Assembly: GCA_046757725.1 (NCBI GenBank)
Contig: JBHHYU010000005.1
Coordinates: forward strand, 4,947-68,946
From: Candidatus Binatia bacterium
Lineage (GTDB): Bacteria; Desulfobacterota; Binatia; UBA9968
Reading direction: 5' to 3'
DNA: 64,000 bases
A program made the translations under genes and the position numbers. Numbering within the stretch: the first letter of the stretch is position 1; each line of letters starts with the position of its first letter. Shown in pieces: positions 14,952-61,355 of the stretch. The notes below the pieces were generated by a model. That model ran no database searches. It was not told where the DNA came from and saw nothing but the letters and a program-made list of their open reading frames with translations.

Positions 14952-15029
14952 ATGGTGGCGGTGGGGGGACTCGAACCCTCGACATCGCGGATATGAGCCG
15001 CGTGCTCTAACCAACTGAGCTACACCGCC
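14952..15029 (-). tRNA. tRNA-Met (anticodon CAU), elongator type; could alternatively be the lysidine-modified tRNA-Ile2
   Basis: Reverse complement reads GGCGGTGTAGCTCAGTTGGTTAGAGCACGCGGCTCATATCCGCGATGTCGAGGGTTCGAGTCCCCCCACCGCCACCA. It has the D-arm GCTC/GAGC, anticodon loop CTCATAT, T-loop TTCGAGT, discriminator A and an encoded CCA. The 1:72 G-C pair and the lack of a GGG/CCC anticodon stem argue against an initiator tRNA. Confidence 0.85.
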
Positions 15030-27546: not shown

Positions 27547-28248
27547 ATGGAACTCTATCTATTCATATTGCGGTGGATTCATTTTCTAGCTGGCATTACC
27601 TGGATTGGGATTTTGTACTATTTCAATTTTATCCAAACGCCGTTTTTTGGAGAAACTGAAGCACCGGTGAGGAGCGCCGCGGTCCAAAAACTCGTGCCCC
27701 GGGCTCTCTGGTGGTTCCGATGGGGCGCGATGTTTACTCTCATAGCAGGGCTACTCATTTATCTTCAGAAAGTCCATGACCAGGGCGGGGCGGATTTTTA
27801 TACGTCTTCCTATGGGCTGGCGATCACAACCGGGGGTCTTATGGGAGTTCTCATGTGGGCCAATGTATGGATGGTGATCTGGCCGAAGCAACAGGTCGTG
27901 ATCGCATCGGCCACCCAAGTAGCGCAGGGAGGGCAAGCTATTCCCGAGGCTGCCCCGTATGGTAAGAGGGCATCTCTAGCCTCCCGGACCAACACTCTTT
28001 TCTCCATTCCGATGCTTTTTTACATGGGTGCTGCGAGCCACTATAACCTAGTCGGGGCCGGCGCGACGGCAGGGTCCTCCGCCCTGATGCTTATTCTGGC
28101 AGCCGTGATCATAGTAGCAGTGGAGATCAATTGCCTCATCGGCACGGAGGGCGCAACAAAAAAGCCCTTGGGCTCCGTCTCCGGGACCATTTGGGCCGGG
28201 TTTATTCTTGCAGCCGTTCTCTATTTACTCTTCTATCTAATTTTCTGA
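27547..28248 (+). CDS. Integral membrane protein, HemJ/CopD-like helix motif (H-x3-G-x3-W-x-G-x-L-Y)
   Basis: 233 aa. First helix IHFLAGITWIGILYY resembles the HemJ/UPF0093 signature. The assignment is tentative. Confidence 0.3.
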   Translation: MELYLFILRWIHFLAGITWIGILYYFNFIQTPFFGETEAPVRSAAVQKLVPRALWWFRWGAMFTLIAGLLIYLQKVHDQGGADFYTSSYGLAITTGGLMGVLMWANVWMVIWPKQQVVIASATQVAQGGQAIPEAAPYGKRASLASRTNTLFSIPMLFYMGAASHYNLVGAGATAGSSALMLILAAVIIVAVEINCLIGTEGATKKPLGSVSGTIWAGFILAAVLYLLFYLIF

Positions 28249-28255
28249 GATCTTT

Positions 28256-28600
28256 TCAGGGAGATGAATTGAGAAAAGCTGCAAGGTCAGGGATCGTAGA
28301 CTTCAGATACGGCTTGGCACGCATCAGCGAGCTTTTTCGTTTGGGGGAGTAGCCCGTAGGATAACCGGCCCGGAGAACCCTTGCCTCAATCAGAGTCTTT
28401 GAAGACCCTTTGATGGCGGGACCGGTCACTCCAGGCCTGGAGGGGTTTGTGTTGTGACACGTAGTGCAGTTTGCCAGGTAGACGCGTCTACCGCGGGCGG
28501 CATCCGGTGCCCGTGCCTTATCTGTCTGTGTCGTGGAATTTTTGGAGCACGCACTGAGAAAAATTACAAGGTACAATACAACTGGCCAACGTAAATGCAT
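28256..28600 (-). CDS. c-type cytochrome (class I), probable lipoprotein
   Basis: 114 aa. Signal peptide with a lipobox (LSAC), a single CTTCH heme-binding motif, and a distal Met region. Confidence 0.65.
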   Translation of the reverse strand: MHLRWPVVLYLVIFLSACSKNSTTQTDKARAPDAARGRRVYLANCTTCHNTNPSRPGVTGPAIKGSSKTLIEARVLRAGYPTGYSPKRKSSLMRAKPYLKSTIPDLAAFLNSSP

Positions 28601-28836
28601 ATGAGTTAGTAATTTAAAGGGTACTTAACTACAACGGGTTGAAAGTCTGCAATCTTCAACAGCGCCTAATCCTACCTCAGCTGATCTTTTTCTCTCCCTT
28701 AAAGATTTTGATCCGTCGCTAGCCCGTGTGTAGCACATTGGGAAACTACGGTTCTCCGTTGCCGTGGATTATTGGGGAATGGCACGCAATCGTTAGAGAA
28801 ATTTCAGCAGCTATGATAAATAAAATGTATTAAAAA

Positions 28837-28924
28837 TGGTGCGAAAGGGGGGAATCGAACCCCCACGGGTGTTAGCCCACAGGATCCTGAATCCTGCGCG
28901 TCTACCAAGTTCCGCCACTTTCGC
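28837..28924 (-). tRNA. tRNA-Leu (anticodon CAG)
   Basis: Reverse complement reads GCGAAAGTGGCGGAACTTGGTAGACGCGCAGGATTCAGGATCCTGTGGGCTAACACCCGTGGGGGTTCGATTCCCCCCTTTCGCACCA. It has a long variable arm, anticodon loop TTCAGGA and T-loop TTCGATT. Confidence 0.85.
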
Positions 28925-28989
28925 ATCGAATGTAAAATGTTTCTAATGATATTATCTTACTTGAGCTTCTCACTATGTCAAGATAAGGA

Positions 28990-29547
28990 GTGAGCATCAT
29001 CGATAGAGCCATGGGGAAAATACTTCTTATTGAACCGCAAAAGATCCTTCGACAGGCTATAACTCTCTCGCTTCATCCAGAACACGAGGTTGAAGCCGGA
29101 GACAACTTTGTGTCGGCCCGCTCGCGAGCCCTTGAGGGTTATGACCTTCTTATTGTCGACGGAGCCGCACTAAGGGAAAACGATCAATTGACTGCGGAAT
29201 TCTCCCGTGCCATTAGAAAGTGTAAAACACCGACCCTGTGGTTGGAGGACAAAGAGACTTCGCATTTGCCTACGGGTGGAAAACTGATTGTCATGAAAAA
29301 ACCCATTGATCGGGAGGTATTCCAATCAGCCTTGGGTAGACTCATTTCTTCCCAACGGGTTTCCCGGAAAACATCGCGATCTTCGGCAAAAGGGGGCACT
29401 AAGGGCGAGAAGCCCGAGGTGGTGCATAAGAAAAAAACGGAGGGAGCTTCACCTCAGGAGGCTTTTCAGTTTATTGATCTGGTGGATGTTGTGCAAGAAC
29501 AGCCCGTATCCAGCGAAAAAAAAACACCACCCAAAAAGTCGAAGTAA
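28990..29547 (+). CDS. Atypical receiver (REC)-like domain protein with Lys-rich C-terminal tail
   Basis: 185 aa. Has KILLIEP (Glu-Pro where a canonical receiver has the DD acidic pair), LLIVDG (putative phospho-Asp) and a conserved Lys (VMKKP). The C-terminal tail is low-complexity and basic. Confidence 0.4.
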   Translation: MSIIDRAMGKILLIEPQKILRQAITLSLHPEHEVEAGDNFVSARSRALEGYDLLIVDGAALRENDQLTAEFSRAIRKCKTPTLWLEDKETSHLPTGGKLIVMKKPIDREVFQSALGRLISSQRVSRKTSRSSAKGGTKGEKPEVVHKKKTEGASPQEAFQFIDLVDVVQEQPVSSEKKTPPKKSK

Positions 29548-29553
29548 CGTGAT

Positions 29554-32332
29554 GACCGGGCAATTGGAAAAAACATATTCGCATAAGGAGATCGAGAAGA
29601 AATGGTATACCTACTGGTCTGATCTGGGTTGCTTTCGCCCCTCCGATTCAAACACAACCCATTTTTCTATGGTTATCCCACCTCCCAATGTCACCGGGTC
29701 GCTGCATATGGGACATGCCCTCAATAATACCCTCCAGGACATCTTGTGCCGTTACAAAAGGATGGATGGTTGTAGTGTCCTCTGGGTGCCGGGAACCGAC
29801 CACGCGGGCATTGCGACTCAGAATGTAGTAGAGCGGCAGCTTGGAAAGGAGGGACTCACGCGGGTCCAACTGGGACGGGAGCGGTTCATTGAACGCGTCT
29901 GGGCTTGGCGGCAAAATACGGGGTCCACTATTCTGCAACAACTCAGGGCTCTTGGGGTTTCTTGCGATTGGAGTCGTGAGCGCTTCACCATGGACGAAAC
30001 GCTGTGCCTGGCTGTCCGGGAAGCCTTTGTCCGTCTTTGGGAAGATAGACTCCTATATCGGGCGGAGCGCTTGATCAATTGGTGTCCCCGCTGTAAGACG
30101 GCGTTAGCCGATATTGAAGTGCTTCACGAAGAGAAAGACGGTCACCTCTGGTATATCCGCTATCCCTTAGTAGATATACCGTCTAAAAGTCTGGTAGTTG
30201 CAACGACCCGGCCTGAAACGATGCTCGGTGATACCGCCGTAGCAGTTAATCCAAAGGACCAGCGTTATCTTGGCTTCGTTGGCAGGAAGATTCGTCTTCC
30301 CATCGTTGGGCGGGAGATCCCCGTGATATCGGATCCCTTTGTAGACGAGGGCTTCGGCACGGGTGCGCTAAAAATTACGCCAGGGCATGATTTTAATGAC
30401 TTCGAAATTGGGGAACGGCATGGTCTCGATAAGATCAATATTTTTAACGATGCGGCACAGATTGACATGTCGTCGTTGCTGAATGAGCTGGGTGAAGAAC
30501 CCGCTTGGCTCAAGCCTTTCCGTTTCAGAGACCGGTATGACGCTCGGCGACTTGTGGAGGAAGAGCTGAGAGAGACAGGGTTCCTCGCCAAAGTCGAGGA
30601 CTATCGCCATACTCTGGGCCGGTGTTATCGTTGCCATACGGTGATCGAGCCCTACCTAACCCCTCAGTGGTTCGTCAGAATAAAACCCTTGGCCGAACCG
30701 GCGATCCGTTCGGTACGCGAGGGAAAGATCAGGATCATTCCCGAGGGATGGGCCAACTCTTACTTTGCATGGATGGAGAATATTAAGGATTGGTGTGTTT
30801 CACGCCAGATATGGTGGGGTCATCAAATACCGGCGTGGTATTGCAAGACCTGTGATGCGGATCATATTCTTCAGACCCGCCCTGGAGAGTTCGTCATGAC
30901 TCGGGAGGCCAGCCCCATCGTGCAACGAGGAGCCCCAACGCAGTGCGCAAAATGTGGGGGAGATTCTTTTATTCACGATCCTGACGTGCTCGACACATGG
31001 TTTTCTTCCGCCCTGTGGCCGTTTTCAACTCTGGGTTGGCCGGAGAAGACTAAAGACCTAAAAGCCTTCTATCCCACCTCGGTGCTCGTGACAGGGTTTG
31101 ACATCCTCTTTTTCTGGGTTGCACGGATGATAATGATGGGACTTAAGTTCATGAAAGATATTCCGTTCCGAGATGTCTATATCCATGCCCTGGTGCGGGA
31201 TCAAGAGGGGCAGAAGATGTCCAAGTCCAAGGGCAATGTCATTGATCCGCTTGAGGTCATCAACCGGTACGGGACCGATGCCTTTCGCTTCACCTTAGCC
31301 TCACTTGCGGCGATGGGGCGGGATGTGAAACTCGCACAAGAGCGCATTGCAGGGTACCAGAATTTTGTGAACAAACTCTGGAACGCCGCCCGCTTTGTCA
31401 TCATGAACATCAGCGAAGAGTTGCAAAGCAGAAAGCAATCGACGTCTGATGAAGTACTCGTGTTGCAGGAAGAAAACCTCAATATGGCGGATCGGTGGAT
31501 CCTGTCCTGCCTGGCCGGTACTATTGAGAAGACCAGAATGGCGATCGAGTCCTACCGTTTCAACGAGTTCGCCCAGCATCTCTACCAGTTCACCTGGCAT
31601 GAGTTCTGTGACTGGTACATAGAAATGAGCAAACTCTCTCTCAATGGAACCCTAGGTGACGACCCGGTGAAGACCCAGCGGGTCCTGCGTGGGGTCTTGG
31701 AGAAGATTCTTCTGATGCTCCATCCAGTGATTCCGTTCGTGACGGAGGAGATATGGCAGGTCCTAACTAAAACCAATAGGAGTATTATGCTGCAAACCTA
31801 TCCCCACGCCGTTTCTTATTGGAGGCAGCCGGGGGTAGAGAAAACCATGGGTTTCTTCATCGAGGTGGCCCGAGCCGTAAGGAACCTGCGCGCGGAAATA
31901 AACTGTCCCCCTTCCAAAGAGGTACAGGTGGTTTTCTTCGGGTTAGAAAAGGATCTTGCCCTGCTTCGATCCCTTGAACCGTACCTTCGTGCACTTGCCC
32001 GGGTGCATTCCCTGGAATACCTTGCCTCTGGTGCAAGGCCAAGGGGGGCTACTACCGCGGTGGTGGGGGCCACTGAGATCTACCTTCCTCTGAGCGGCTT
32101 GGTGAATTTACAAGAAGAAGCGGAGCGGCTTATGACACGGATCGGGAAAGTAGAGGCAGAGTTGGCTCGGGGACAGAAGAAACTCGCTAATAAACAGTTT
32201 GTTGCTAAGGCTAAAGAAGAGGTCATCCAGAGGGAGAAAGGCAAAACGGAAGAGTGTGAGGCTAAGCTCCGGACGCTCAACCGCAGCCTGGAAAGGATCC
32301 AGGAAATTCGGCAAACCGGAGAGGAGTCATAG
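29554..32332 (+). CDS. valS: Valine--tRNA ligase
   Basis: Class I HIGH motif (PPPNVTGSLHMGHA), KMSKS motif (KMSKSKGN) and a C-terminal coiled coil. The start was set at MTGQLEK. The track ORF from 29306 is an in-frame upstream extension. Confidence 0.9.
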
Positions 32333-32334
32333 CG

Positions 32335-33195
32335 ATGGATGTTCCAATCACACCACAGATTCGTCAGCTGCTCAGGAGTTCTCTGGAAGAGGACATTGGC
32401 GCAGGGGACATCACAACACTTTGCACGATTACTCCCGACTCCCAAGGAACAGGTTTTTTTCGAGCCAAACGCGATGGTGTCCTAGCGGGAGTATTTCTGT
32501 TAAGCGAGATCTTTAAACTTCTGGATAGCGACGCCAAGGTTAATTGCCTCTGTCGCGACGGGGAACTGACGGAACGAGGAACGGTTGTAGCTGAAGTAAA
32601 CGGTCCAGTAAGGGCGCTGCTTATGGGGGAGAGGACAGCCCTTAACTTTCTCCAGCGTCTCTCGGGAACGGCCACTTTAACCCGCGAATATGTCGACGCT
32701 GTCAAAGAGTTTCCCTGCAAGATTATCGATACTCGGAAAACCACTCCCGGTTTTCGTACTCTGGAAAAATACGCAGTGCGGATGGGGGGTGGTATGAACC
32801 ACAGGCTTGGTCTTTTTGACGCGGGTTTAGTCAAGGACAACCACATTGCTGCCTCCGGATCCATAGCAGCAGCCGTCGACAGCATACGGCGCCAAGCCCC
32901 TTTTATGGCTAGGATCGAGGTGGAATGCTCAGAATTAAAACAGGTGCAAGAAGCCCTCGAGTCCGGCGCCGATGTAGTTATGCTGGACAATATGGGAACT
33001 GAGATGATGACTGAGGCCGTACGCCTCGTCAATAAAAGGATATGGGTTGAGGCATCAGGAGGCATTACCCTGGCACGGTTACGTGAGGTGGCTGCCACAG
33101 GGGTAGATTTTATTTCCGTGGGTGCCCTGACACACTCTGCGCCGGCAGTGGATTTTAACATGAAAATAAGCCTACCGGACCTACAAGGTGGATAG
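32335..33195 (+). CDS. nadC: Nicotinate-nucleotide diphosphorylase (quinolinate phosphoribosyltransferase)
   Basis: 286 aa. QPRTase N- and C-terminal domains (LAGV..., VMLDNM). Confidence 0.85.
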   Translation: MDVPITPQIRQLLRSSLEEDIGAGDITTLCTITPDSQGTGFFRAKRDGVLAGVFLLSEIFKLLDSDAKVNCLCRDGELTERGTVVAEVNGPVRALLMGERTALNFLQRLSGTATLTREYVDAVKEFPCKIIDTRKTTPGFRTLEKYAVRMGGGMNHRLGLFDAGLVKDNHIAASGSIAAAVDSIRRQAPFMARIEVECSELKQVQEALESGADVVMLDNMGTEMMTEAVRLVNKRIWVEASGGITLARLREVAATGVDFISVGALTHSAPAVDFNMKISLPDLQGG

Positions 33196-34030
33196 AGGTT
33201 TCAAGACAAAAAGAGATGAAACCATAGGACCGTTCGGCGCCCCTCTCGAACCCGATAAGATTCAGAAGGGCTTACTGACGGCGCGGCTCGGAAACAGGAT
33301 CCATTATCTTCTACAGACTGATTCCACAAACGCCTATGCCCGTAAACTGGCCCAAGAAGGTGCAGTCGAAGGAGAGGTCGTCATTGCCGAAGCGCAGGTT
33401 GCAGGCAAGGGCCGTATGGGACGGAGTTGGGTTTCGCCCCCCGGAGTCAACCTTTATCTTTCTGTCATACTGCGCCCTCGACTTTCTCCAGTCCATGCCC
33501 CTCAACTCACTCTAATGGCCGCAGTGGCCCTGGCAGAAACGGTATGGTCATTCATTTCCTTTCCCCCGGAAATCAAGTGGCCTAACGATATCCTTGTTGG
33601 AGGAAAAAAATTGGCCGGGATCTTGGCGGAATCTTCCTGCGAAACCCACAAGATACTTTTTGTTGTAGTAGGAATCGGGGTCAACCTGAACTATCTACCG
33701 GAACGGATGCCAGCAGCAATTAAGCAAAGTGCTACCTCCATTATGGCTCTGATGCAGATGCCCGTAGATCGTATCGCATTCACCCGCCGCTTGATTCAAG
33801 ACCTCGACCAGTGCTATGGGGATCTTGAGGCAAAAGGCTTTGCTTCAGTCGCCCCTCGTTGGGAGAGCTTCTGCCGGCTTAAAGGGCAAAAGGTCAGGGT
33901 GACAATGATCGATCGGTCTATAATTGGAAAAGCCATGGGGATTGACGATGACGGGGCTCTGATCTTGAAAGACGAGGGTGGAGCCCGACATAAGATACTG
34001 GTAGGGGACGTAATCCCCATTGATAGATAA
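33188..34030 (+). CDS. birA: Biotin--[acetyl-CoA-carboxylase] ligase
   Basis: GKGRMGRSWVSPPG motif (biotin/ATP-binding GRGRxGRxW) and a C-terminal SH3-like domain. Confidence 0.8.
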   Translation: MDRGFKTKRDETIGPFGAPLEPDKIQKGLLTARLGNRIHYLLQTDSTNAYARKLAQEGAVEGEVVIAEAQVAGKGRMGRSWVSPPGVNLYLSVILRPRLSPVHAPQLTLMAAVALAETVWSFISFPPEIKWPNDILVGGKKLAGILAESSCETHKILFVVVGIGVNLNYLPERMPAAIKQSATSIMALMQMPVDRIAFTRRLIQDLDQCYGDLEAKGFASVAPRWESFCRLKGQKVRVTMIDRSIIGKAMGIDDDGALILKDEGGARHKILVGDVIPIDR

Positions 34031-34042
34031 CGGTCCATAGCT

Positions 34043-34885
34043 ATGCTACTGGCCATCGATATCGGCAATACCAATATCGTCTTAGGAGTCTACAAGGGAG
34101 CGAACCTTGTCGCTCATTGGAGACTCCTGACACAGGCCGAGCGAACCGCCGATGAATATGGCATCTTGATACTCCAGCTTGCCTCTTCTCAGGGAATCAG
34201 CCCGAATCAGATATCCGCCATCTGTGTTTCCTGCGTGGTTCCCCCCATGCAGGGTGTAGCCGAAGAACTTGGTGTAAGGTTTTTCGGCCTCCATCCTTTT
34301 TTGCTGGGGCCGGGTGTTAAGACAGGCATGCCGGTCCTCTACGATAGCCCCAAGGACGTAGGAACCGACCGGATTGTTAACAGCGTGGCCGCCTATGAGA
34401 AGTGCCATGACTCCTGCATCGTCGTGGATTTTGGAACGGCCACCACCTTTGATGTCGTCTCTAAGAAAGGAGAATACCTGGGGGGTTCTATTGCCCCGGG
34501 CTTGCTTATTTCGGTAGAGGCCCTCTTCCAGAGAGCATCCAAACTTCCCCGGGTAGAGATCGTTAAGCCCAAAGAGGTTGTTGGGAAAAACACGGTCCAT
34601 TCCATTCAGGCAGGGATTTTTTACGGTTATGTAGCCCTCGTTGATGGGATTGTCGAGCGAATCCGGCAGGAAAACCGGGTACGAGCTCGGGTGATTGCTA
34701 CCGGGGGGTTGGCTCCGCTCATCGCATCTGACTCCCGCACCATTGATGAAGTAGATAAGTTGCTCACCCTGGAAGGGCTGCGCATCATTTATGAAAGAAA
34801 CATGGTTCGAGGTTCAAAAAAGAGGGCGGAAAATAAATCAAGGGGGGGCAGATATGGCAAGGGCAGATTTAGAAAAACTGCGTAA
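34043..34885 (+). CDS. coaX: Type III pantothenate kinase
   Basis: [18 protein letters not shown]-terminus. ASKHA fold. The birA-coaX adjacency is widespread. Confidence 0.85.
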
Positions 34886-36947
34886 TGTGGGAATTCTTGG
34901 CCATGGGGGTGTAGGAAAGTCCTCACTAGGAGAGGCCATGCTGTTCAGCGGAGGGGCGACTCAGCGCATGGGTCATACTGAAGACGGGACTTCCGTTTTT
35001 GATTTTGAACCTGAGGAGATCAGGCGGAACGTTTCAATTTCTACGGCGTTTCACTCCCTGCTATGGAAAAAGACGATGATCAACCTCGTCGACACTCCGG
35101 GCTACCCTCCATTTCTAGGAGAGGCCATTCATGCGATGCGTGCCTTTGGTGGGGCTATCTTTCTGATCAATCCCTCCAGCGGGCTTAAGGTCGAAGCCGA
35201 AAGATTATGGGCCCGTGCTGACAATGCCCATATCAGCCGGCTTATATTTATCGGCAAAATGGAACGCGAGAAATCCGAGCAAAAACAAGCAACCGATGCG
35301 ATTCTAAGTCATCTCGGGGCAAAGGGAGTCTATCTGCAACTTCCGATTGGGGCAGAGGACGCATTCAGGGGCGTGGTCGACCTTCTTCTGATGAAGGCCG
35401 TTATCTTTGAAGGCAATAGTGGAAAGTTCACTCAATCGGAGATACCGGAGGATCTCAAAAAAAGCGCCGAGGACATGCGGGTGCAACTGATGGAAAGCGT
35501 AGCTGAGACAAATGACGTCTTGCTGGAAAAATATCTTGATGGCCAGGAGCTCTCCTTGGAAGAAATCAAGCAAACCCTTCGGGAAGGATGCCTAAGCGGA
35601 AAATTATTTCCGATTCTTTATGGTTCGGCGAGTCGACAGGTTGGGATCCCTCAGCTTATGGATGCCATCATCGATTATCTTCCCTCACCACTCGATAGAG
35701 GCAAGGTTCAAGGAAAAAATCCCGTTACCGGGGATTTGGAGCAACGAGCCGTTGACCCGGGTGGTCCATTTGCAGCCTTTGTTTTTAAAACCATTGTAGA
35801 TCCGTTTGCCGGGAAGTTGTCGATCATGCGGGTCTTTTCCGGAAAGATAAGCACAGAAATGGGCGTGTACAATTCAAATAAACAGGCCAAAGAGAAGGTC
35901 GGTCACCTATTTAGATTGGAAGGAAAAAAACAAGAAAACGTTCAGGAGGCAGTGGCCGGAGAAATTGTGGCAGCAGGGAAACTCAAGATAGCGAGTACAG
36001 GAGATACGCTCTGCGACGAGAAAGCACCGATCCAATTTGACGGGTTAGTCCAGTTTCCTCCGCTCATTGCCTTTGCTCTGGAGCCAAAGACCAAGGCAGA
36101 CGAGGAAAAAGCACCGTTGGGCCTGCATCGAATGATGGAGGAAGATCTCAACATGGAAATGCATCGGGATCCACAGACCAGAGAGTTTATCCTTTCCGGT
36201 ATGGGCCAGCTCCACATTGAGGTGATCGTCGAAAAACTCAGGCGTAAGTATGGGGCGGAGGTAAAGCTTCAAGCCCCGAAGGTGCCTTACAAGGAAACCA
36301 TCAAGGGAAAAGTCAGCGCTCAAGGCAAATACAAACGACAGTCTGGGGGAAGAGGGCAATACGGAGATACCTGGATCAAGATTGAGCCGCTGCCCCGCGG
36401 AAAGGGGTTTGAATTTGTGAGTGAAATTGTCGGTGGGGCTATCCCGCGAAACTATATTCCTGCAGTAGAAAAAGGCGTGAAGGAAGCTTTGGCAGCCGGA
36501 TACCTTGCGGGATACACCATGGTGGACATCCGTGTGACGCTTTACGATGGCTCCTACCATGAGGTGGATTCTTCGGATATGGCGTTTAAAATCGCTGGTT
36601 CGATGGGATTTAAGAATGCCGTGGAGAAGGCCAAGCCAATAATTCTAGAACCCATTATGTCCATGGAAGTATCTGTGCCGGACGATTCCATGGGCGATGT
36701 GATCGGAGACCTGAACAGCAGGAGAGGGCGAGTCCTGGGAGTCGAAACCAAGGGCCACACCCAATCCATTAAAGCTCGCGTTCCAATGGCAGAGGTGCTG
36801 AAATATGCTCAGGATCTACATGCGATGACCAGTGGTCGAGGAGGGTTCCAGATGGAGTTTTTTGGATATGAAGAACTCCCCCCTCACCTCACCGAGAAGG
36901 TCATCAAAGAAGCCAGAGACCCGGCGAGGGAGCAACATAAAGCTTAA
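34854..36947 (+). CDS. Elongation factor G-like protein with degenerate GTPase motifs
   Basis: EF-G domain architecture throughout (DTPGY G3, domains II-V). G1 is GHGGVGKSS rather than AHIDAGKTT, and G4 is GKME rather than NKMD. Confidence 0.7.
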
Positions 36948-36962
36948 ATTTGGTCCGAGGGA

Positions 36963-37166
36963 ATGGAAAAGAGTTTTGATCAACTCCAGGCCAGTCTTTT
37001 ATATTGCAAACAGTGCAGACGGGCGATGCCTGTTCGCCAACGGCTTCTTTTAGTTTTACCTGATGGGGAACTGCATGATTATCTATGCCAGGGGTGTGGG
37101 CATTCGCTCGGCTCTAAGACGGAACGTACAATGAGATCGCCTGCCTCTCAGAAGATAACACTTTAG
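36963..37166 (+). CDS. Small zinc-ribbon protein (two CxxC pairs)
   Basis: 67 aa. CKQC...CQGC. Confidence 0.3.
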   Translation: MEKSFDQLQASLLYCKQCRRAMPVRQRLLLVLPDGELHDYLCQGCGHSLGSKTERTMRSPASQKITL

Positions 37167-37183
37167 TTGAAGTCCAGGGTGGG

Positions 37184-38215
37184 GTGACAATGGTAACCAT
37201 CGATGCGGATGCGCATGTCCTAGAGAACGAGCGTACTTGGGATTACATGGACCCATCGGAACATAAATTCAGGCCCGTGATTGTTTCTGAACGGGACCCG
37301 CAGCCGCCGGGTACAGAATATTGGCTGGTTGACGGGAAATTTCAACCAAAGGTAAAGAACGTCGGACAAGAAACCCCGAAGGCATCACGGGAGATGGCCG
37401 ACATATCCAGCCGCTTAAGGCATATGGATGAGCTGGAAATCGATATACAGGTGCTCTATCCATCCCTTTTTCTGAGGCCTCTCACCAGGCGCCCCGAGGT
37501 GGAGCTGGCATTATGCAAAAGCTATAATCGTTGGTTGGCGGATATCTGGAGACAGGAGAAAAAACGCCTGCGATGGGTGACGGTGCTGCCGCTCTTGACT
37601 ATTGATAAGGCACTCGATGAAGCACGGTTCGCAAAGAAAAACGGGGCCTGTGGAATTTTCCTACGCGGATTAGAAGGAGAGAGACGCCTAAACGACCCCT
37701 ATTTCTTTCCTGTTTACGAGGAGGCCCGCAGACTGGATATGCCTGTGTGCGTCCATTCTGCGACGGGAAGCTTTACCCTGTTTGAGTTCTTTACCCAGGA
37801 GTGCGGCTTTTCGAAATTCAAACTGGCAGGAGTCGGTGCTTTTCATTCGTTCATCTATGATGGTATTCCAGATAAGTTTCCAGGCCTCAGATTTGCATTT
37901 ATCGAGTTTAGCGCTCAATGGTTGCCCTATGCCATCCACGACCTGGCTAAACGATTTCAGCGGCGAGGACAATCCCTTCAGAAGGAGCTTTTACGGGAAA
38001 AAAGGATTTATGTGGCGTGCCAGACAGACGACGACATGCCGAATGTCGTTAAATATTCCGGCGAAAACAACCTCGTGATCGGTTCCGATTACGGCCATTC
38101 AGATACGGCCAGCGAGATTGAAGCCTTGCGGAAATTAAAGCGGCAGGGCGGTCTTAACCCTGATACGATTGGCAAGATACTGGATGACAACCCGCGAACC
38201 CTCTATGGTCTTTGA
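37184..38215 (+). CDS. Amidohydrolase-2 family metal-dependent hydrolase (TIM barrel)
   Basis: 343 aa. N-terminal IDADAHV metal-binding His pair and C-terminal GSDYGHSD. Confidence 0.6.
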   Translation: MTMVTIDADAHVLENERTWDYMDPSEHKFRPVIVSERDPQPPGTEYWLVDGKFQPKVKNVGQETPKASREMADISSRLRHMDELEIDIQVLYPSLFLRPLTRRPEVELALCKSYNRWLADIWRQEKKRLRWVTVLPLLTIDKALDEARFAKKNGACGIFLRGLEGERRLNDPYFFPVYEEARRLDMPVCVHSATGSFTLFEFFTQECGFSKFKLAGVGAFHSFIYDGIPDKFPGLRFAFIEFSAQWLPYAIHDLAKRFQRRGQSLQKELLREKRIYVACQTDDDMPNVVKYSGENNLVIGSDYGHSDTASEIEALRKLKRQGGLNPDTIGKILDDNPRTLYGL

Positions 38216-57987: not shown

Positions 57988-58914
57988 ATGAGGATAGTCG
58001 TTACCGGTGGAGCAGGATTTATCGCATCGCATATTGTAGATGCGTATGTCGCAAAAGGTCATGAGGTTTTTGTCATCGATGATTTGTCCAGCGGATCGCG
58101 GAAAAACGTGAACAGACGAGCAATGTTTTATCACATGGACATCTGCGACCCGGCGGTTTCAAAACTGTTGTCTGACATCTCCCCAGATGTCCTCAACCAC
58201 CATGCGGCCCAAATGGACTTACGCCGTTCGGTTGCGGATCCTCTGTTCGATGCTCGAATCAACATACTTGGTTTTCTTAACCTGCTGGAAAACTGCAAGC
58301 GTACAGGAATCAAAAAGGTCATCTATGCTTCATCGGGCGGGGTTGTCTATGGGGAGCAGGGGATCTTTCCTGCCGCAGAGAATCATCCCAGGTCACCGTT
58401 GAGCCCTTATGGGGTAAGCAAACTGACCGGGGAACAATACCTAGTCTACTATCACAAAAACTTCGGCCTTTCCTACAGCGGGCTACGCTACGCGAACATC
58501 TATGGGCCTAGACAGTCCAGCATCGGTGAGGCTGGGGTTATCGCTATATTTATCGGCCGGCTTCTGGCCGGAAAGGCACCGCTCATCAACGGTGATGGTA
58601 AGCAAACTCGAGACTACGTCTTTGTGGAGGATGTCGTAGCAGCCAACGTGCTGGCACTGGATTCCCACTACGTTGGATACCTGAATATAGGCACTGGGCA
58701 GGAGACAGATGTCCTGACGCTCTTTAATTTCCTCCGGGATAAAATTGGGAGCAAGGTCGAGGCGATCCATGGTCCGGCCAAGGCCGGAGAACAGAGGCGG
58801 AGTTCTCTAGATGCGTCCTTGGCTGCCAAGGTGCTGGGATGGATCCCTCAAACCCGGCTGGAAAGTGGACTGGAGAAAACCATCGCCTACTATCGTGAGG
58901 CGCTTCGCCCATGA
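57988..58914 (+). CDS. NAD-dependent sugar-nucleotide epimerase/dehydratase (GalE-like SDR)
   Basis: [18 protein letters not shown]-terminus and YGVSKLTGE catalytic motif. The start was set at the internal ATG. Confidence 0.7.
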
Positions 58915-60707
58915 GGCCTCAGCAGGTTAGAAACTTTTCCATCATTGCGCACATCGACCACGGTAAATCGACCTTGGCAGACCGTCTGCTGGAATTCACA
59001 GGCGCAGTGAGCGAACGAGAACGGGCGAATCAGTTCCTCGACAGCATGGACCTCGAGAGAGAGCGGGGTATTACCATTAAGGCCAGCCCGGTTCGTCTAT
59101 GCTATCGGTCAAGGAACGGAACAGAGTATCTCTTGAATCTTATCGACACACCGGGACATGTGGATTTTACTTATGAGGTTTCTAGAAGTCTAGCGGCATG
59201 CGAGGGGGCCCTCTTGGTTGTGGATGCAGCCCAGGGGGTTGAAGCCCAGACGGTAGCCAATGTTTACATGGCCCTGGATCACGGGTTAACAATTGTTCCG
59301 GTTATCAATAAGATCGACCTTCCTAGCGCGGACCCTGAGCGTGTCAGGAATGAGATCGAGGATATCATCGGTCTGGACGCCACTGAGGCTATTTTGGCCA
59401 GTGCCAAAGAGGGCAAAGGAACCGAGGCGATCCTCGAGGCGGTTGTGAATCATTTTCCGGCGCCGCAAGGGAATCCGGCCGATGCGTTACGTGCTTTGAT
59501 ATTCGACAGTTGGTTTGACCCTTACCATGGAGCTGTTGTGATGATACGCCTATTTGACGGGGTTGTCCGGAAGGGAATGCGCATCCGCTTGATGTCGAGC
59601 AACAAGGTCTTTGAGGTTACCCGGCTGGGCATCTTTTCTCCCGGGCCCGTAGAAATCACTGAGATGCAAGCGGGCGACGTTGGTTTCCTAATGGCTGGGA
59701 TTAAAGAAATACGAGAGGCCCGTATTGGGGATACCATCACTACTGCTGAAACTACACCGGCGATACAACCGCTATCAGGATTTAAGGCAATGAAGCCAAT
59801 GGTTTTTAGCGGCCTTTACACGGCTGATTCCGCACAGTACCCGGCCTTAAGAGACGCACTGGAGAAGCTGAGCCTTAATGATCCTGCGTTCACCTTTGAA
59901 CCGGAAAGCTCCCAGGCCCTGGGTTTTGGATTTCGTTGTGGCTTCCTTGGTTTATTGCATCTGGATATCGTCCGGGAGAGATTGGAACGGGAATTTGGCC
60001 TGAGCCTGATTACCACCGCGCCGACAGTTATCTACCGGATCATCAAACACCGGGGTGGAGCCGTCCTTATTGACAATCCCGTAAAACTTCCCGCATCCTC
60101 CGACATTAAAAAGATCGAAGAGCCGGTGATCCTTGCAACCATTCATCTCCCGCAGGAATTTCTCGGAGGCGTATTAACACTATGTGAAGAAAAAAGGGGC
60201 ATCCAAAAGGAGATTCGCTATCTCGGACCCAAGAGGGTCATGCTGCTCTATGAACTGCCACTCAGCGAAATCGTTGTGGATTTTTATGATCGATTGAAAT
60301 CGGTCAGTCGCGGTTATGCCTCCATGGATTACGAAGTGGCGGATCGCCGATCTTCAGATCTGGTAAAATTAGATGTCCGTATCAACGGAGATGTCGTGGA
60401 TGCCATGTCCATGATCATTCATCGGGAGAGGGCTTACCAACGGGGCCGGGATCTTGTCCAACGCATGCGCGCACTCATTCCCCGGCAACTTTTTGAAGTG
60501 GTCATTCAAGCTGCAGTGGGTAGCCGTATCATTGCGCGGGAGAGTGTCAAACCAATCAGGAAAAACGTCACGGCAAAATGTTACGGTGGTGATATCACTC
60601 GGAAACGTAAGCTCCTGGAAAAACAGAAAGAGGGAAAAAAGAGAATGAAGCAAGTGGGAAGGGTGGAGATACCCCAGGAGGCCTTTCTAGCTGCCCTCAA
60701 AGTGTAA
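58911..60707 (+). CDS. lepA: Elongation factor 4 (LepA)
   Basis: [16 protein letters not shown] and NKID GTPase motifs plus the LepA C-terminal domain. Confidence 0.9.
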
Positions 60708-60734
60708 GACTCTAAGAGAGGATAGTACGAGATC

Positions 60735-61355
60735 ATGGAAGTGAACCGAAAACAGAAATCAACCGTTCGTGAGTATGTCGAAGTGATCGGCATGGCTCTC
60801 TTTCTGGCCCTTTTTATCCGGACCTTCATTGTGCAGGCGTTCAAGATTCCTTCCGGCTCCATGATCCCGACTCTCCAGATTGGAGACCATATTTTGGTGA
60901 ACAAGATGCAATACGGAATTCGTATTCCGTTCTGGGGTGAGTATATATGGGAATACAAGAAACCCAAGCGGGGCGACGTTGTGGTTTTTATTTTCCCGAA
61001 GGACCATTCTAAAGATTTCATTAAGCGGGTGATCGGCGTCGGTGGCGATCTTGTGGAAGTCCGCAATGGAAAGGTCTATATCAACAACGTTGTGATTAAT
61101 GATCCGCATGCCTATTTTGAAACTGCTGAGTCGCCGGCCAACGGATACCAAATGAATGGGGATTACGGCCCGAAGCGGGTGCCAAAAGACCACATATTTG
61201 TCATGGGGGATAATCGGAACAAAAGCTATGACAGCCGTTACTGGGGCTACGTTGACCTTCAAGCTGTTAAGGGTAAGGCCTTCATCGTCTACTGGTCTTG
61301 GGATTGGCAGGACCATTGGGCCCGCTGGGGACGCATCGGCCATGTGATTCATTGA
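60735..61355 (+). CDS. lepB: Signal peptidase I
   Basis: GSMIPTL (catalytic Ser), KRVIG (Lys) and GDNRNKSYDSRYWG motifs. Confidence 0.85.
   Translation: MEVNRKQKSTVREYVEVIGMALFLALFIRTFIVQAFKIPSGSMIPTLQIGDHILVNKMQYGIRIPFWGEYIWEYKKPKRGDVVVFIFPKDHSKDFIKRVIGVGGDLVEVRNGKVYINNVVINDPHAYFETAESPANGYQMNGDYGPKRVPKDHIFVMGDNRNKSYDSRYWGYVDLQAVKGKAFIVYWSWDWQDHWARWGRIGHVIH

Follow-up and report, generated by a model that had tools for sequence, protein, structure and literature searches.

A probable EFG II-family paralogue of elongation factor G with an altered G4 motif in a conserved gene cluster of Candidatus Binatia

The 64,000-nucleotide stretch of contig JBHHYU010000005.1 from a Candidatus Binatia bacterium, referred to here in its whole length as the window, encodes a paralogue of elongation factor G (EF-G) that is, judging from its sequence, likely a member of the EFG II (EF-G2/EF-G-2) family. 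By analogy with characterised relatives, the paralogue probably functions, a reading held with modest confidence, as an accessory EFG II protein, namely a slow translocase with little or no coupled GTP hydrolysis. The finding overturns no current understanding, and most of the apparent anomalies in the protein are already described, because its motifs together make up the published EFG II signature (PMC3150367, PMC4342817). New here are the stepwise, lineage-specific loss of the NKxD motif, the conserved housekeeping cluster around the paralogue and a conserved small zinc-ribbon neighbour. The gene and its principal motifs are the following.

34854..36947, forward strand: EF-G paralogue (likely EFG II-type), an uninterrupted open reading frame (ORF) of 697 aa plus stop with an ATG start
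34899..34925, forward strand: G1/P-loop, GHGGVGKSS, Walker A intact and of the EFG II kind, beginning with Gly and carrying Gly19 where the P-loop Asp would be
35022..35045, forward strand: G2/switch I, RRNVSIST, with Ser61 in place of the Mg-coordinating Thr
35091..35114, forward strand: G3/switch II, DTPG kept, with Tyr84 (nt 35103-35105) replacing the catalytic His
35253..35264, forward strand: G4, GKME in place of NKxD, with Asn and the guanine-specifying Asp both absent
35622..35645, forward strand: G5, GSASRQVG, with Ser-Ala kept
36333..36368, forward strand: domain IV tip loop 1, canonical and essentially invariant (G, G, R, G and Q at 99-100%), located by alignment to Thermus thermophilus EF-G
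36540..36602, forward strand: domain IV tip loop 2, canonical and essentially invariant, located by the same alignment

The paralogue ATG is preceded by a Shine-Dalgarno-like GGGGGGG run, and the encoded N-terminus (MIEIDKLRNVG) agrees with that of the orthologues. The complete EF-G domain set is recognised by Pfam, comprising GTP_EFTU at residues 8-278 including G', EF-G_D2, EFG_III, EFG_IV and EFG_C. Alignment with T. thermophilus EF-G covers the protein from one end to the other, scores 646 bits and needs no indels longer than one residue. These results bear out the claim of a preliminary description of this DNA that the architecture is EF-G-like throughout. Domain V retains its C-terminal helix in full, and there are no deletions of the EFG II type. 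An AlphaFold2 model built on a 71-sequence alignment reaches a mean predicted local distance difference test score (pLDDT) of 91.5 and a predicted template-modelling score (pTM) of 0.83. Its best global superposition is on the ribosome-bound EF-G 7N2V, a translocation intermediate, with a template-modelling (TM) score of 0.94 and a root-mean-square deviation of 1.9 Å, and the superposition on T. thermophilus EF-G-2 (1WDT) gives a TM score of 0.76. As modelled, the protein has the fold and domain layout of an EF-G that engages the ribosome.

All four of the canonical motifs (AHxDxGKT, RGITI, DTPGH and NKxD) differ in the paralogue. In every classical translational GTPase the catalytic His comes right after DTPG. 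With Tyr at this position and Gly for the P-loop Asp, the paralogue is without both residues on which canonical translational GTPases rely for hydrolysis activated by the ribosome. The G1, G3 and G4 sequences given in the preliminary description are present as quoted, with DTPG found from nt 35091 and GKME standing instead of NKMD, so that Asn and Asp are both gone; two further changes, the catalytic His to Tyr84 and the G2 Thr to Ser61, were overlooked there. The P-loop is not degenerate, as had been proposed, because GHGGVGKS fits the Walker A pattern GxxxxGK[ST], and Gly21 and Lys22 are 100% conserved in the orthologues. The suggestion that GTP binding may be lost is likewise not sustained, since the phosphate and Mg elements are strictly conserved (GxGGxGKTS, Ser61, and D80, P82 and G83 at 100%) and only base recognition is relaxed. 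A search of the 64-kb window for a second translational GTPase found LepA only and no other EF-G. The lepA (EF4) gene lies at 58911-60707 on the forward strand, scores 962 bits to TIGR01393 and encodes canonical motifs including NKID; it is followed by lepB (signal peptidase I), the pair spanning 58911-61355 (+). As the window LepA is fully canonical and serves as an internal control, the odd motifs are specific to the EF-G paralogue rather than genome-wide.

Placement of the paralogue within EFG II is supported by profile scores, by its motif signature and by its location. The scores against the NCBIfam models NF009381 (PRK12740 group) and TIGR00484 (canonical EF-G, EFG I) are as follows, the 1WDT sequence having been matched to the PDB chain residue by residue.

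Paralogue (window protein): NF009381 906 bits, TIGR00484 730 bits
T. thermophilus EF-G-2 (1WDT): NF009381 810 bits, TIGR00484 490 bits
Dictyoglomus EF-G (canonical): NF009381 870 bits, TIGR00484 1149 bits
Gluconobacter EF-G (canonical): NF009381 783 bits, TIGR00484 1017 bits

The paralogue and 1WDT thus have NF009381 as their common best model and the canonical EF-Gs have TIGR00484. The paralogue also exceeds the TIGR00484 cut-off of 659.4, though its NF009381 score is higher, and it falls below the cut-off of the narrower EF-G2 equivalog model NF009377 (585 < 890). An exhaustive phmmer search of 1.84 billion cluster representatives was followed by analysis of the best 148 alignable matches, nine of which are fully canonical with invariant AHxDxGKT, RGITI, DTPGH and NKxD and 139 non-canonical. 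Among the 139, the P-loop Asp is Gly in 98, the G2 residue is Ser in 105, and the catalytic His persists in only four, being replaced by Tyr (64), Phe (31) or Asp (11). The G4 Asn is retained in 114 and the G4 Asp in 126 (91%), with Glu in eight; GKME is atypical even within EFG II. In a tree of 160 sequences the seven canonical EF-Gs separate with 100% bootstrap and the paralogue sits on the 1WDT side, the family trees here being neighbour-joining distance trees in which spdEFG, Tet and RF3 outgroups were not included. Two of the canonical representatives, P0212 and P0152, both sit in rpoC-rpsL-rpsG-fusA-tuf, and the paralogue is located outside the str operon. The best model, the motif signature and the non-str location together uphold the original identification of the gene as an EF-G paralogue rather than canonical fusA.

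The published descriptions of the family agree with most of this signature. EFG II proteins are reported to have G1 as GhxxxGKT, G2 as xxxSx and a conserved NKxD, with a delta-proteobacterial subgroup carrying RxxT/SI that is placed 'near the root' and termed 'less diverged' (Margus 2011, PMC3150367), and to carry Gly at the monovalent-cation site of the P-loop (Atkinson 2015, PMC4342817). The paralogue corresponds to these descriptions in G1, in the P-loop Gly and in G2 (RNVSI), and departs from them at NKxD. From the orthologue sequences, this G4 change reads as a lineage-specific decay within EFG II and not as grounds for exclusion from it.

A search of about 5.8 billion proteins yielded 120 orthologues among the matches listed, at 70-77% identity. 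Those with named sources derive from Candidatus Binatia/Binatota or 'Deltaproteobacteria' metagenome-assembled genomes, and all are annotated 'elongation factor G', a plain public name that is explained by the paralogue's passing the TIGR00484 equivalog cut-off; automated annotation can therefore confuse such paralogues with fusA. The same kind of motifs recurs throughout this set, answering the question of motif conservation that the preliminary description had raised. G1 is G[HQ]GGxGKTS in essentially all of the orthologues, the G2 Ser is present in 115 of the 120, and G3 is DTPGY in 118. The remaining two carry DTPGH alongside an EFG II-type G1, and the tree requires one change at that position. 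Residues G21, K22, D80, P82 and G83, the EPEE stretch of switch I and both domain IV tip loops (including GGRGQYG) are 99-100% conserved.

The G4 motif itself is variable, occurring as SKME (39), AKMD (24), SKMD (18), GKME (10), NKMD (10), NKVD (6) and other forms. A neighbour-joining tree built from all 120 orthologues puts NKVD and NKMD in basal position, AKMD in one subclade and SKMD in another, and on it the change from Asp to Glu (SKME/GKME) arose inside the SKMD group. Parsimony on this tree counts at least 14 changes at the G4 Asn position and at least six changes between Asp and Glu. The third residue of G5 (residue 260, nt 35631-35633) covaries with G4 residue 137 (nt 35262-35264), being Thr in 54 sequences that have Asp and one of Met, Leu and Phe in 33 that have Glu, a signal that phylogeny confounds; this hints at a coordinated remodelling of the base pocket. 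Pairwise ratios of nonsynonymous to synonymous substitution (dN/dS), computed over 18 genomic loci, come to about 0.05 in domains III and IV against about 0.12 in the G domain, with a range of 0.05 to 0.13 across all domains and a figure of about 0.09 overall. As dS is saturated at about 1.5-1.8 these ratios are only rough, and purifying selection is still clear. The pattern shows selection for keeping the binding of nucleotide phosphate and Mg and the reach to the decoding centre, with selection on guanine recognition relaxed. In tblastn, one related EFG II copy, at L033:8001-10078 in 'uncultured delta proteobacterium MFD00962.bin.2.109', falls apart into five segments whose identities vary widely, from 27 to 72%. 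The neighbouring valS, nadC and birA are likewise fragmented, and the cause is probably assembly indel errors rather than a true pseudogene.

The paralogue lies in a compact series of genes, of which the following are in or near the cluster.

29306..32332, forward strand: valS (valyl-tRNA synthetase, by Pfam), with a longest ORF of 1008 aa from a TTG at 29306
32335..33195, forward strand: nadC (quinolinate phosphoribosyltransferase)
33188..34030, forward strand: birA-type biotin protein ligase
34043..34885, forward strand: coaX (type III pantothenate kinase), running 32 nt into the start of the paralogue
36963..37166, forward strand: zinc-ribbon ORF of 67 aa with CxxC...CxxC, 15 nt past the paralogue stop
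37184..38215, forward strand: Amidohydrolase_2 gene, 17 nt past the zinc-ribbon ORF, a conserved flank
27547-28248, forward strand: membrane-protein-like gene with a Urate_ox_N domain, a conserved upstream flank in most Binatia loci
28837-28924, reverse strand: tRNA-Leu(CAG), just upstream of the valS cluster
14953-15029, reverse strand: tRNA-Met(CAT), farther from the valS cluster

The four genes previously named upstream of the paralogue are thus all present and tightly packed, with intergenic gaps of +2, -8, +12 and -32 nt from valS through nadC, birA and coaX to the paralogue. The paralogue had also been called the last gene of the operon, which is contradicted by the conserved 67-aa ORF beginning 15 nt downstream and the amidohydrolase gene after it. 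The true valS start is probably 60-80 codons downstream of the TTG, because the Pfam match opens only at residue 99 and orthologues align over about 930-950 aa. The overlap between coaX and the paralogue stems from a short C-terminal extension of coaX and is specific to the window genome, as about 30-280 nt separate the two genes at orthologous loci. About 20 Binatia loci repeat the order (Urate_ox_N-like)...valS-nadC-birA-coaX-EFGII-(zinc-ribbon)-amidohydrolase, and the core valS-nadC-birA-coaX-EFGII is found also in relatives at 55-57% identity (L019, L020, L032) and is absent in other phyla around EFG II-like genes that are 40-47% identical. A scan of positions 28200-37400 for promoters and terminators gave counts no better than those in shuffled sequence, and an Rfam and tRNA scan of the 64-kb window returned the two tRNAs only; neither a leader nor a riboswitch was detected close to the cluster. 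From the gene arrangement, the paralogue appears to share a transcript, or at least a tight cluster, with valS-nadC-birA-coaX and the zinc-ribbon ORF. This position in a housekeeping cluster suggests expression at housekeeping level rather than purely under stress.

Under the favoured explanation, the paralogue would bind the ribosomal factor site in a nucleoside triphosphate (NTP)-bound state with domain IV reaching the decoding centre, and would promote or stabilise the translocation of tRNA and mRNA with little or no coupled GTP hydrolysis, leading to slow turnover. The relaxed G4 would weaken or broaden base recognition, with nucleotide binding not lost. Members of EFG II are capable of slow translocation (PMC4342817), and for the EF-G variant H92A multi-turnover translocation persists with very slow release, on the order of tens of seconds. 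The paralogue would act beside a canonical EF-G encoded elsewhere, a presence that we infer because, across 305 genomes, every EF-G that stood alone was EFG I (Margus 2011, PMC3150367) and because repeated changes in G4 would be intolerable in an essential main translocase. One EF-G homologue was found in each of the 33 genome loci examined, and a literature search combining Binatia and EF-G returned nothing relevant.

EFG II proteins are among the most widespread translational GTPase paralogues and have no agreed function, and the three studied members differ from one another, being an active GTPase and translocase, a slow translocase free of hydrolysis and a ribosome trap. The first of these, T. 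thermophilus EF-G-2 (1WDT/2DY1), is the founding member of EFG II and, like the paralogue, has NF009381 as its best model. With the motifs GHAGSGKTT, DAPGY and TKLD it shares with the paralogue the P-loop Gly, DxPGY and a replaced G4 Asn, but it keeps the G4 Asp, is 665 aa long with deletions and is only 35% identical; both GTPase activity dependent on the ribosome and translocation have been reported for it. The EF-G2 of Bacteroides thetaiotaomicron (7UVP/8DMF), also of the EFG II family, is described (Han 2023, as cited in PMC12775393) as sustaining translocation, at a slow rate, with no hydrolysis of GTP, which is the mechanism favoured here for the paralogue. It differs in belonging to the NCBIfam model NF058620, to which the paralogue scores 500 against a cut-off of 1000, and in being induced by starvation from its own promoter (PMC6989115), whereas the paralogue lies in a housekeeping cluster. 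The EF-G2 of Mycobacterium smegmatis (9K0Z/9K10), a non-essential paralogue beside canonical EF-G1, has GPSGGGKTT, Ser in G2 and DTPGY and so shares with the paralogue G..G.GKT, the Ser and the Tyr. It differs in that its G4, TKLD, retains the Asp, its C-terminal helix is shorter and its domain IV loops are displaced; it has no GTPase, translocation or recycling activity, and is assigned a role in stress; the Binatia paralogue, in contrast, is full length with canonical domain IV loops. Canonical EF-G (EFG I, TIGR00484; for example T. thermophilus 1EFG/1DAR) shares with the paralogue the five-domain fold, G', identical domain IV tip loops and 44-46% identity, and differs in AHIDAGKT, RGITI, DTPGH, NKMD and its location in the str operon.

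Outside the EF-G superfamily, a Glu at the G4 Asp position is found also in two unrelated families. YchF/OLA1 GTPases, with a G4 of NxxE, prefer ATP (PMC8779481), while GD1 of the ribosome-assembly GTPase EngA/Der has NKxES as its normal G4 and binds guanine nucleotides (PMC10448771), so that the change from Asp to Glu is not predictive on its own. The Binatia clade is a convenient one in which to ask about the need for nucleotide recognition, because its G4 decays stepwise (NKxD, A/SKMD, S/GKME) and the loops that contact phosphate and the decoding centre are invariant.

Several observations count against the placement of the paralogue and the function proposed for it. In the family tree it is mainly the G domain that sets the canonical EF-Gs apart: bootstrap support is 100% with that domain, drops to 50% with domains II-V and to 9% with domains III-V, so that a common origin of the paralogue and the characterised EFG II proteins is likely, not proven. 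Raw similarity is higher to canonical T. thermophilus EF-G (646 bits, 44%) than to 1WDT (453 bits, 35%). Tyr84 alone is no proof of lost hydrolysis, because T. thermophilus EF-G-2 with its DAPGY reportedly retains ribosome-dependent GTPase activity. Since the promoter and terminator scans were uninformative, the case for operon membership is one of spacing and synteny alone. Finally, M. smegmatis EF-G2 has the same motifs and no translocase action, and traps post-translocation ribosomes under stress.

This last protein provides the model for an unlikely, but still serious, alternative, in which the paralogue would be a stress or hibernation factor that holds the factor site of post-translocation ribosomes and slows protein synthesis. 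The G-domain signature is that of 9K0Z (G..G.GKT, Ser in G2, DTPGY), and the further decay of G4 would suit a protein that has stopped cycling on GTP. Against this, both tip loops of domain IV are invariant and the same as in canonical EF-G, the paralogue is full length with a complete C-terminal helix, unlike M. smegmatis EF-G2, and it resides in a housekeeping cluster, not in a recognisable stress locus. The earlier proposal of a regulator rather than a translocase accordingly has a precedent in M. smegmatis EF-G2, but it is weakened by the canonical tip loops, which are 100% conserved, and by the fact that two characterised EFG II proteins do translocate.

A distinctly improbable role is that of an EF-G specialised in ribosome recycling together with RRF, comparable to spdEFG2 or mitochondrial EF-G2 (mtEF-G2). 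When the G domain alone is searched, mitochondrial RRF2 takes second and third place among solved relatives (93 and 91 bits), and domain V ends in a complete C-terminal helix. The full-length scores are however only 318 bits for mtEF-G2 and 390 bits for mtEF-G1, far below the 646 bits for EF-G, mtEF-G2 retains AHIDAGKT, DTPGH and NKxD, and the EFG II proteins tested so far have no recycling activity. Membership in spdEFG1/2 was considered and rejected, as there is no switch I (KDG) insertion relative to T. thermophilus EF-G and the mtEF-G scores are low.

More far-reaching, and very improbable, is the case in which Binatia would be without a canonical EF-G and the paralogue would be their main translocase without classical GTP hydrolysis or, in a weaker form, the S/GKME subclade would have switched or broadened its nucleotide preference. 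If the former were true, translocation would perhaps proceed with relaxed nucleotide specificity and from a gene expressed within the valS-nadC-birA-coaX housekeeping cluster; under the latter, a canonical EF-G would be present and the S/GKME subclade would use ATP or any NTP, comparable to the NxxE of YchF. The more general proposition that the paralogue is the sole or main translocase, either a drifted canonical fusA or a replacement of the canonical copy, is hardly credible. It draws on the score above the TIGR00484 cut-off (730 > 659), the high similarity to canonical EF-G and the housekeeping operon. Against this, all canonical EF-Gs examined keep AHxDAGKT, RGITI, DTPGH and NKxD and sit in the str operon, the sole EF-G was always EFG I in the 305-genome survey (Margus 2011), and repeated G4 changes within a clade are unlike an essential main translocase.

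The chance that the paralogue is a ribosomal protection protein like Tet(M)/Tet(O) is very remote. Membership in the EF-G superfamily and the non-str location would fit, but the protein scores 300 bits to tet_protect (NF012153) against a cut-off of 775 and 170-200 bits to the specific Tet models against 1100-1425, Tet(M) retains AHVDAGKT, DTPGH and NKID, and the synteny is conserved and vertical rather than that of a mobile context; the protection-type factor proposed earlier is thereby set aside. A pseudogene or error-laden fusA, the latter of which had been put forward as what would overturn the original interpretation and for either of which the fragmented copy at L033 could be cited, is practically negligible in view of the intact ORF, the 120 orthologues with the same kind of motifs, a dN/dS of about 0.09, far below 1, and the confident structure prediction. 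Identity with RF3, BipA or LepA was rejected on scores and motifs.

The small ORF that follows the accessory EFG II candidate is conserved in its own right. By tblastn it occupies the corresponding site in 14 Binatia loci, with identities of 68-82%, and it also follows EFG II in the long contigs L036 and L038. The ORF matches no Pfam family, and its AlphaFold2 model, a four-strand ribbon with a pLDDT of 75, gave no significant structural match, the best hits being generic zinc ribbons at E = 0.1. The zinc-ribbon family comprises 364 proteins, which where named are called 'cytoplasmic protein' or 'hypothetical'. In Nitrospirota (L034) the zinc-ribbon ORF sits after Lon and a gene with an AIRS domain (PF00586), and because the gene is located elsewhere in that phylum, the link between the zinc-ribbon protein and EFG II is lineage-specific.

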